From the sequence record OR844650: a stretch of 64,000 nucleotides of DNA. The stretch is one strand, 5' to 3'. Positions 189-1,791 of this stretch are shown one piece after another. The notes under the pieces are model-generated. The model did no database searches. It was not told the DNA's origin and saw nothing but the letters and a program-made list of their open reading frames with translations. The stretch comes from Escherichia phage ECO103 4-12-1. The first letter of the stretch is position 1; the number at the start of each line of letters is the position of its first letter. A program made the translations under genes and the position numbers.

Positions 189-389
189 TTAGTCATGAAC
201 ACGCTCACAATTAAGGCAATAAATGCACTCAATGTCAGGTCGCCATGATTTATCAAAATCTTTGTGTTGTTCTTCGGTGTATTCCGCATCATCATTAATA
301 GGGAAGAAATCACCAGCACCAGTCGCCCAGTCTGAATCTAAACGGAAACGAGCTAATTGAGTACTGTTACAATATGGACATTTATTCAA
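189..389 (-). CDS. small zinc-ribbon protein
   Basis: ORF 66 aa; CPYC near N-terminus and CIYCLNC near C-terminus. Confidence 0.55.
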   Translation of the reverse strand: MNKCPYCNSTQLARFRLDSDWATGAGDFFPINDDAEYTEEQHKDFDKSWRPDIECIYCLNCERVHD

Positions 390-666
390 AATTTATTCCT
401 TCTAACTGATATACGTTTAATGAAAATGACCCACTATTATTATCGCATCTGAAACACAGTGTTAAAGAACCATTAAAACTAACTACATCCGTACAGATAC
501 ATTTTTCACCATTGGATATGATAGATTTTCCTATATATAAATCTCTTACTATAGTACGGTAATGTTGCCATAAAAAATAATACACACTTTCATAGTACTC
601 ATCTTTTACATATGATAAGTATAAGAATTTATAAAATACTTGTATTTCCTTTAAGTTGTTTTTCAT
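382..666 (-). CDS. hypothetical protein, family C paralog
   Basis: ORF 94 aa; N-terminal motif EIQVFYKFLYLSY shared with next four genes. Confidence 0.6.
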   Translation of the reverse strand: MKNNLKEIQVFYKFLYLSYVKDEYYESVYYFLWQHYRTIVRDLYIGKSIISNGEKCICTDVVSFNGSLTLCFRCDNNSGSFSLNVYQLEGINFE

Positions 667-940
667 TCTCCAACTCCAGTAAATTTACACCAATCCAATC
701 AACATCACTATCAGTACTTAATTCCAATCGTAGCTTACCGCTATGACTAACAATATCGCGGAATTTGTATATTTTATTATCACGAACTATACACAAATCA
801 TGGTAATATTCATGTAATTCATCCAAAAACTTTATCCATACCGAACGATAGATTTCACTGTAGAGATATTCTCCAGCATCAACCGTAGCGTATTGGATAT
901 ACAAAAATTTGTATGTGAATTGTATATCATTTAATAACAT
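629..940 (-). CDS. hypothetical protein, family C paralog
   Basis: ORF 103 aa; N-terminal MLLNDIQFTYKFLYIQY. Confidence 0.6.
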   Translation of the reverse strand: MLLNDIQFTYKFLYIQYATVDAGEYLYSEIYRSVWIKFLDELHEYYHDLCIVRDNKIYKFRDIVSHSGKLRLELSTDSDVDWIGVNLLELENEKQLKGNTSIL

Positions 941-950
941 ATGTAACCTC

Positions 951-1262
951 TTATAAATTCACCAACTTCACAACTTTAATCTCGATAAATCCCCTATCGG
1001 TTATTTCCTGAAATTGAACATGGATTATACCATTATATGATTGCACACCATAGAAATCGAATTTATCATTTCCATCGATAAAAGTACTGTAATTCTTTTT
1101 TATATATTCACCTACTGAATCTAAGTACTCAATATATAAATCAATAAATGGTTGTTCTTTGGATCGGTTATGTGAACCTATGTTGTTACTAACAAGGTAT
1201 ACATCATACAAATCATATAGTATCTTATAAGTGAATTGTATATCATTTAAATTTAATCCCAA
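951..1262 (-). CDS. hypothetical protein, family C paralog
   Basis: ORF 103 aa; N-terminal MGLNLNDIQFTYKILYDLY. Confidence 0.6.
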   Translation of the reverse strand: MGLNLNDIQFTYKILYDLYDVYLVSNNIGSHNRSKEQPFIDLYIEYLDSVGEYIKKNYSTFIDGNDKFDFYGVQSYNGIIHVQFQEITDRGFIEIKVVKLVNL

Positions 1263-1519
1263 GGGAATATCTCCAACGGAATACTGGTAAATCCAAAATC
1301 AGTGTAGTACTGAACCTCAACTTTACCATCACGTCTAATGATTATATCAGAAAATTCTGCATGGTCATCACCAATAATAACAGTACTGAATTTTTTTTTA
1401 ATCTTACCACGAATCGTATGAATCATTTCAGTGCATGTGTCTTCTAGACTAGGGCTATCATTGTCGTGTGCTAAATCTTGAATAATCTTGTATGTTAGTA
1501 GGAAATCTTTATAATTCAT
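1253..1519 (-). CDS. hypothetical protein, family C paralog
   Basis: ORF 88 aa; N-terminal MNYKDFLLTYKIIQDL. Confidence 0.55.
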   Translation of the reverse strand: MNYKDFLLTYKIIQDLAHDNDSPSLEDTCTEMIHTIRGKIKKKFSTVIIGDDHAEFSDIIIRRDGKVEVQYYTDFGFTSIPLEIFPWD

Positions 1520-1791
1520 ATGTCCACCAAATCTATACTATATCTTTCATTAGTATTACTATCTATAAATGATAGTACTAATTTACCACCAAAACTATTA
1601 ACTTGTTCTATCTTCTGTTTTTTACCACGAATGATTATCTCACTATTAACAAAATATTCACGTATCATTATTAAGTGATTAATCCAGATAGTATGAGTGA
1701 ATGTGTTTTCTCGTATTGTATTGAGATATCTTCCATTGTGATGTAAATCAAACAAAACACTGTATGTATATTGTAGAACTTTATAATTCAT
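1516..1791 (-). CDS. hypothetical protein, family C paralog
   Basis: ORF 91 aa; N-terminal MNYKVLQYTYSVLFDL; 4-nt overlap with downstream gene. Confidence 0.55.
   Translation of the reverse strand: MNYKVLQYTYSVLFDLHHNGRYLNTIRENTFTHTIWINHLIMIREYFVNSEIIIRGKKQKIEQVNSFGGKLVLSFIDSNTNERYSIDLVDI

Follow-up and report, generated by a model that had tools for sequence, protein, structure and literature searches.

The 64,000-nucleotide stretch of Escherichia phage ECO103 4-12-1 analyzed here (OR844650; hereafter, the window) carries near its left end an array of five small genes, at positions 382-1791. The window belongs to an Asteriusvirus (121Q/PBECO4-type) jumbo coliphage with a genomic G+C content of 31%, whose relatives are Asteriusvirus jumbo myoviruses of ~350 kb. 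The array region is 99.8% identical to that of Escherichia phages SHEFM2K, G17, CRJP21 and Sharanji, and 98.5% identical to that of 121Q, and the array DNA itself is 97.9-99.8% identical in 121Q, PBECO4, G17, Sharanji and phAPEC6. All open reading frames (ORFs) in the first 4 kb of the window lie on the minus strand. The five ORFs of the array correspond to gp422-gp426 of 121Q; they have already been annotated in ~30 GenBank genomes, everywhere as "hypothetical protein", and the record of G17 contains the same five coding sequences with exactly matching coordinates.

The initial annotation of this locus described five consecutive ORFs of 88-103 aa, and all five are present on the minus strand. 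The array starts with paralog 1 (1516-1791, 91 aa; 121Q gp422, phrog_32291), which has an AAGGGG ribosome-binding site before its ATG. It is followed by paralog 2 (1253-1519, 88 aa; gp423, phrog_35943), the most divergent member, and by paralog 3 (951-1262, 103 aa; gp424, phrog_21004), which starts at a TTG 8 nt past a GGAG. Paralog 4 (629-940, 103 aa; gp425, phrog_21004) is the member used for structure modeling, and paralog 5 (382-666, 94 aa; gp426), whose start follows GGAGTTGGAG, overlaps the end of paralog 4 by 38 nt. Ahead of each of the five starts lies a Shine-Dalgarno-like sequence (GGAG, GAGG, GGTGG or AAGGGG).

Neighboring ORFs were said to overlap by 4-38 nt throughout, which holds for three of the four junctions. 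Paralogs 1 and 2 share a 4-nt ATGA, in which the start sits on the stop, paralogs 2 and 3 overlap by 10 nt, and the 38-nt overlap of paralogs 4 and 5 encodes the disordered 13-residue C-terminal tail of paralog 4. Paralogs 3 and 4, however, are separated by a 10-nt spacer (941-950) that contains a GAGG ribosome-binding site. This tight packing leaves no room for internal promoters, and the array is therefore most likely a single polycistronic unit, co-transcribed and translationally coupled.

Existing records do not always contain the full-length genes. In the 121Q record (6382-6618), gp426 is annotated as a protein of 78 aa that lacks the motif shared by the family, while G17 has the full 285 nt. 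Similarly, the gp424 ortholog in the PBECO4 record (P0018) is truncated, and starts at an internal methionine. The longer starts (ATG at 666 and TTG at 1262) are correct, as the conserved N-terminal motif requires them.

Relationship among the five genes

The N-terminal signature on which the five ORFs had been grouped is real, with the consensus M-N-x-x-D-I-Q-F-T-Y-K-x-L-Y-x-x-Y. Its residues Q7, T9, Y10 and L13 are each found in 67-86% of 36 distinct family members. When the 311 ORFs of the window were used as a BLASTP database, near-full-length matches chained all five proteins (382-666 with 629-940, E 2e-6; 629-940 with 951-1262, E 9e-6; 382-666 with 1516-1791, E 3e-5; 951-1262 with 1253-1519, E 2.4e-4), and no comparable match to any other ORF of the window was found. 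In Smith-Waterman comparisons, 7 of the 10 pairs outscored 300 out of 300 composition-preserving shuffles, with z-scores of 4.9-12.8 (11.2 for 951-1262 and 1253-1519).

A motif that merely reflected low-complexity composition, which the initial annotation had named as the result that would undo the family, does not account for these scores. Five pairs keep a z-score above 5 after removal of the first 20 residues, so that the similarity is not an N-terminal low-complexity artifact, and shuffle controls with and without the motif support homology. Profile hidden Markov models (HMMs) of the PHROG database recovered 629-940 (E 6e-44) and 951-1262 (E 2.4e-50) with phrog_21004, 1516-1791 with phrog_32291 (E 1e-62), and 1253-1519 with phrog_35943 (E 1e-61). 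The protein encoded at 382-666 has no PHROG of its own, and its cross-matches are weak (E 1.6e-4 and 7.7e-4). The additional match of 1516-1791 to phrog_21004 (E 3.5e-5) supports a single superfamily.

The paralogs are now 15-30% identical to one another. Nucleotide similarity remains only at the 5' ends of two gene pairs (26 nt at 92% and 54 nt at 70%), suggesting that the duplications are old. A repeat or regulatory element at the DNA level was also considered and rejected, as there were no long repeats and a search of Rfam gave nothing (best E 0.83).

Orthologs taken from phages that are 76-84% identical in DNA gave ratios of nonsynonymous to synonymous substitution rates (dN/dS) of 0.18-0.61, mostly 0.2-0.6, at dS 0.3-1.6; the values were 0.20-0.23 for 1516-1791 and 0.20-0.45 for 1253-1519. 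Each copy is therefore protein-coding and under purifying selection, and the five positional orthologs are intact in most Asteriusvirus genomes. Pairwise statistics, profile searches and PHROG cross-matches thus uphold the proposed small tandem family of five copies, and we have little doubt that the five ORFs form a real, expressed family of paralogous genes.

The window contains other expanded families as well. A tandem family of 29 members (63-104 aa) occupies 37147-44897 on the minus strand plus 23583-23774, and families of 11 members (~105-190 aa) and 9 members (~150-185 aa) lie at 15.2-38.9 kb and 18.6-27.9 kb, respectively. The statement in the initial annotation that most of the window consists of tandem paralogs was too strong, however, since paralog families detectable by BLAST cover 32.8% of it. 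For kinship of the five genes with these other families (29, 11, 9 and 3 members), hhalign gave probabilities of 0.1-0.2%, and such kinship was rejected.

Predicted fold and distribution of the family

An AlphaFold2 model of gp425 (629-940), computed from an alignment of 33 sequences, reached a mean predicted local distance difference test score (pLDDT) of 85.1 and a predicted template modeling score (pTM) of 0.74. In this model, two helices (residues 3-18 and 25-45) form a hairpin, and the strands (50-53, 56-66, 69-75 and 82-86) are arranged in a small bent sheet, followed by a short C-terminal helix. Residues 99-103 fall below a pLDDT of 50, and the disordered last residues belong to the tail whose codons extend into the 5' end of the following gene. 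The family is thus predicted to adopt a fold in which an N-terminal two-helix hairpin packs on a four- to five-stranded SH3-like sheet.

The first helix bears the DIQFTYKxLYxxY motif, with conserved residues I6, Q7, T9, Y10, K11, L13, Y14 and Y17. Conserved positions in the second helix are W35, Y38, L39, I42, Y45 and F46, and a hairpin with the pattern D62-V63-x-S65-x-x-G68 is conserved as well, G68 being nearly invariant. Between the helices, loop length and sequence vary, with a longer loop in paralog 3, and many positions of the sheet are variable in sequence.

A Foldseek search of the model against the PDB returned nothing significant, with a best E-value of 0.14 and SH3-like barrels at the top (among them eIF5A, Tudor, the Tudor domain of PcrA, Mfd and WYL). 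As modeled, the C-terminal half resembles these barrels (Tudor, KOW, the N-domain of eIF5A/EF-P and the RNA-polymerase-interacting domain (RID) of CarD/Mfd) in being a small, strongly bent antiparallel sheet, but the helical hairpin packed on it has no counterpart there. Neither the structural comparison nor Pfam placed the family among the SH3-like barrels (Tudor, KOW, CarD_TRCF RID or eIF5A N-domain). In BFVD, the four significant matches were all Asteriusvirus proteins and the next two were proteins of phage RaK2 (E 0.011 and 0.098); beyond this phage group, no significant match was found in that database.

To delimit the family, an iterated profile was built over seven syntenic loci (121Q, JNE01, RaK2, A4, ph0011, WPEC5 and Ecwhy_1). 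Members were recognized by a profile match, the secondary structure order H-H-E-E-E-E(-H) (H, helix; E, strand), a first helix with the TY(K) motif, and a hairpin of the pattern D-V-x-S-x-x-G. The profile converged on 42 members, with E-values of 1e-21 to 1e-33 for the core five and their orthologs. It found no further members within the window, where the best non-member had an E-value of 0.3. The family alignment was too divergent for a scan with a degenerate pattern.

In two word-indexed searches, profiles run against 5.8 billion proteins recovered 33 and 31 of them, respectively. All named matches were Asteriusvirus-type phage or E. coli records, and RaK2-type sequences occurred only among the unnamed matches of the second search. 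When a profile was run exhaustively with HMMER against 1.84 billion cluster representatives, it gave 24 matches at E<=1e-3, about 19 of which are family members of 82-110 aa, from RaK2-like jumbo phages wherever their origin could be traced. The remaining matches, to long proteins (P0058, P0059 and P0062), were judged spurious, as they align to a 20-30-residue beta-hairpin only; from their sequences alone, we take the repeats of these proteins to resemble carbohydrate-binding modules. With tblastn over 50,697 phage records, the gp425 type was found in only 34 records, of Escherichia and Salmonella phages, and the annotated ones that were retrieved are Asteriusvirus. A scan of IMG/VR found only 121Q itself. 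These searches place the family in RaK2-like jumbo phages only.

Sequence searches of Pfam, NCBIfam and the PDB for relatives of known function yielded no match. Similarly, no anti-defense protein rose above noise in the sequence and fold searches of the PDB. The PADLOC defense library gave a weak match of 1253-1519 to a model of a type II restriction enzyme (REase_II, PDLC03543; E 6e-4, 17 bits, residues 12-83), which is probably noise.

Neighborhood, continuation and divergence of the array

Paralog 5 is followed by an unrelated gene on the minus strand (189-389, 66 aa; 121Q gp427, phrog_22354), which encodes a zinc-ribbon protein with a CxxC...CxxC pattern and is embedded in the array. This gene is 71-100% identical across Asteriusvirus and RaK2, far more conserved than the surrounding family, and its RaK2 ortholog is embedded at the same position. 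The ortholog in K64-1 is annotated as "transcription factor IIS-like". The match of 189-389 to the Pfam model for the restriction alleviation protein Lar (PF14354) remained below the gathering score (E 0.19; 12.4 bits against 28.6).

Beyond the zinc-ribbon gene, the family probably continues past the left edge of the window, a point that the initial annotation had raised. Positions 1-196 (minus strand) hold the first 65 codons of a probable sixth, more distant member (121Q gp428, 87 aa), which contains MTKAELIVHTYKMI and is cut by the window edge. A probable seventh member, gp429 of 121Q, lies wholly beyond that edge. Support for both is consistent but moderate. In a local ORF set, gp428 and gp429 gave HMM E-values of 0.002-0.004, and the gp429 orthologs of JNE01 and A4 were found at E<1e-3 with a profile made from the five window genes alone. 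In BLASTP, gp426 and gp428 match at 5e-5, over the strand region with the pattern YIGKS(I/L)I.N, and hhalign assigned probabilities of 61% and 34% to the relation of gp428 and gp429, respectively, to the family. An AlphaFold model of gp428, with no core-family sequence in its input, shows the same H-H-E-E-E-E-H order at a pLDDT of 68. The two proteins sit in two further PHROGs.

In RaK2 (genus Alcyoneusvirus), ORF453 and ORF456 flank the zinc-ribbon ortholog, and ORF469 adjoins pseT; ORF453 reached an E-value of 5e-15 after profile iteration, and 74% in hhalign. Eight further candidates (gp431, gp433, gp434, gp419 and gp420, and ORF452, ORF455 and ORF467 of RaK2) were not accepted as members, with hhalign probabilities of 17% or less.

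At its other end, the array is bounded by a hairpin resembling an intrinsic terminator (1808-1832, minus strand), located 16 nt upstream of the ATG of paralog 1. It has a 9-bp stem with 5 GC pairs, followed by TTTTTG, is annotated as a terminator in G17, and is unique in the window. It separates paralog 1 from an ORF of 228 aa (1838-2524, minus strand; 121Q gp421, phrog_15575) with a strongly acidic C-terminal tail, DDGDDSIYIDLDDDDDDE. The true start of this ORF is uncertain, because 121Q and G17 annotate a shorter version of 615 nt.

The array lies within a syntenic block that runs from pseT-rnlA to the cytidylyltransferase and dam genes. Its neighbors with a predicted function are polynucleotide kinase, RNA ligase 1, cytidylyltransferase and Dam, all of them nucleic-acid enzymes. 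An ORF of 261 aa (3539-4324, minus strand) with CapR-homology domains (PF21817, E 1e-16) separates the genes for the cytidylyltransferase and the Dam methylase, and has the appearance of a mobile or homing-type insertion. Some 850 bp within it (3455-4300 of the window) are missing from 121Q and most relatives, which is why the relatives cover only 86-87% of the first 6 kb.

Divergence and copy-number change are both much faster in the array than in its flanks. Counted from the zinc-ribbon gene to the gp421-like gene, there are five copies in 121Q, ph0011, WPEC5, Ecwhy_1 and A4, although in A4 three gp422-like copies replace gp422-424. JNE01 has three copies without one-to-one orthology, and RaK2 has one or two (ORF453 scores; ORF452 is unconfirmed). 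Family members in ph0011 are 55-74% identical, against 89-98% for the flanking genes, and in JNE01 the corresponding values are 28-38% and 51-85%. Compared with Ecwhy_1 (L007, 4082-5485), the gp425 and gp426 proteins are 98-100% identical and those of gp422-424 59-74%. This step in identity, at ~940-950 of the window, points to a recent recombination with its breakpoint inside the array.

Internal losses were seen in two Salmonella phage records. SD-6_S16 (L008, 2152-2442) lacks 994-1146 and 1207-1324 of the window, yielding an in-frame gp423/gp424 chimera (P0028), and SD-1_S14 (L009, 2141-2299) lacks 1007-1392. Behind these losses is either a genuine event between paralogs (recombination or deletion) or an error in assembling these 310-326-kb records. 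As the records contain many small deletions and may be imperfect assemblies, they were not used as evidence that the genes are dispensable.

Possible functions of the family

With moderate confidence, we favor an explanation in which the array is a lineage-confined set of tandem paralogs that encode accessory proteins for interaction with the host. That the proteins bind host factors for host takeover or counter-defense is, taken by itself, a tentative assignment. The five genes go back to ancient tandem duplications, and their products, at ~90-100 aa, are predicted to be soluble, mostly acidic and absent from the virion; the operon most likely runs through the zinc-ribbon gene into the probable distant paralogs gp428 and gp429. 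The family evolves by birth-and-death and rapid divergence, its neighbors remaining conserved. A conserved scaffold and a patch on helix 1 would be kept, and the variable loops and sheet surfaces would diversify toward different or changing targets, with the bound partners coming from the host and possibly from the phage. A more daring version, which we consider doubtful, holds that a previously undescribed fold, as modeled here, lets each paralog neutralize or redirect a different host factor or defense system, so that the array would be a diversifying counter-defense toolkit of RaK2-like jumbo phages, possibly acting with the zinc-ribbon protein.

Several protein properties bear on this explanation. 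Four of the five proteins are acidic, with isoelectric points of 4.8-5.8, and hydropathy is too low for a membrane segment, so that they are predicted from sequence to be soluble. The neighborhood fits as well. T4 polynucleotide kinase and RNA ligase 1 repair tRNA damage inflicted by the host, and the presence of both enzymes nearby is therefore in line with a neighborhood related to conflict; this carries little weight, however, because the whole block is syntenic. Other observations speak against a role in host interaction. No specific activity is suggested by a homolog of known function, dN/dS stays under 1 in all comparisons with no direct signature of positive selection, and genes under weak constraint would also be expected to diverge fast and to change in copy number. 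Moreover, no promoter of the array was found, as a sigma-70 scan gave no more matches than shuffled sequences, and the sole upstream signal is the terminator. Our search of the literature found no transcriptome for Asteriusvirus or Alcyoneusvirus.

The proteins might instead be regulators tied to transcription or nucleic acids, with the SH3-like sheet docking on RNA polymerase, ribosomes or nucleic acid, like Tudor, KOW and CarD-RID domains, and maybe together with the zinc-ribbon protein. Such a role is suggested by the conserved zinc-ribbon gene inside the array in both Asteriusvirus and RaK2, by the TFIIS-like annotation of its K64-1 ortholog, and by the polar residues conserved on helix 1 (Q7, T9, K11) and at D62/S65. 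The adjacency of the zinc-ribbon gene is unspecific, however, because the entire region is syntenic, and the acidity of four of the five proteins argues against direct binding of nucleic acids. Together with the lack of a Pfam match to the CarD_TRCF, KOW or Tudor models, this makes a regulatory role unlikely. We regard it as quite improbable, too, that the genes are weakly constrained leftover duplicates, by-products of duplication and recombination that inflate the genome, and dispensable, redundant or near-neutral. The different copy numbers among close relatives, the three gp422-like copies in A4, the deletions and the chimera in SD-6_S16 and SD-1_S14, and the other expanded families of the window (29, 11 and 9 members) would all be expected of such leftovers. 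Yet the dN/dS values given above indicate sustained purifying selection on each copy, the five positional orthologs are intact in most Asteriusvirus genomes, ribosome-binding sites and family motif are conserved, and the many small deletions in the SD records may be assembly artifacts.

A place in the virion, or in its assembly as structural or chaperone components, is very unlikely. Small structural proteins without a known function are indeed numerous in jumbo phages, and some other phages of this kind carry paralogous structural families. The phAPEC6 orthologs gp386c-gp389c were, however, not among the 62 virion proteins of that phage detected by mass spectrometry (PMC7247149, Table 1), and the neighbors with predicted functions include no morphogenesis genes. 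Finally, the ORFs could have arisen by chance in AT-rich DNA, with a motif that reflects composition only, and a G+C content of 31% does favor peptides rich in Asn, Tyr, Ile and Lys. This is refuted by the shuffle controls, the purifying selection, the confidently predicted fold and the conservation in ~30 phage genomes. The rest of the probability falls to functions other than those listed here.

A role in host interaction would be analogous to that of the small early genes in the hyperplastic regions of T4-type phages and of other lineage-specific expansions in jumbo phages. In T4-like phages, variable small genes cluster in hyperplastic regions (PMC4122927; PMC2839356; Comeau, Arbiol and Krisch). 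Like these regions, the array consists of small, non-essential-looking ORFs of unknown function between conserved genes, is subject to indels and replacement among close relatives, and is bounded by a stem-loop terminator. In contrast to the unrelated cassettes of those regions, its genes are mutual paralogs, and the phage lies outside the T4-like group. The T4-type promoter-early/stem-loop (PeSL) arrangement was not found either; the window has the one hairpin at 1808-1832, without a sigma-70-like promoter beside it or a second copy. Among other jumbo phages, about 10% of the proteins of RaK2 are paralogous (PMC3622015), and Bacillus phage G has roughly 35 copies of a zinc ribbon (PMC7824862). 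The array shares with these expansions that it is a family of small proteins limited to one jumbo phage lineage, without homologs in the databases, but it differs from them in family and fold, and with 5-7 copies it is small compared with the 29-member family of the window itself.

The array is thus an ordinary feature of jumbo phage genomes, a further lineage-specific expansion of hypothetical proteins. What the analysis adds is the unification of several PHROGs, at least three for the core genes, in what profile comparison indicates is one family, the corrected N-termini (121Q gp426 starting at 666, and the TTG at 1262), the probable inclusion of gp428, gp429 and ORF453, ORF456 and ORF469 of RaK2, and a predicted common fold. 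Expanded families of small orphan proteins, the roles of which are almost entirely unknown, account for much of the size of jumbo phages. Being compact, confidently foldable, found only in one lineage and faster-evolving than its neighbors, this family is a tractable candidate for screens for host takeover or anti-defense activity, in a group of phages that is being characterized for therapy against pathogenic E. coli.

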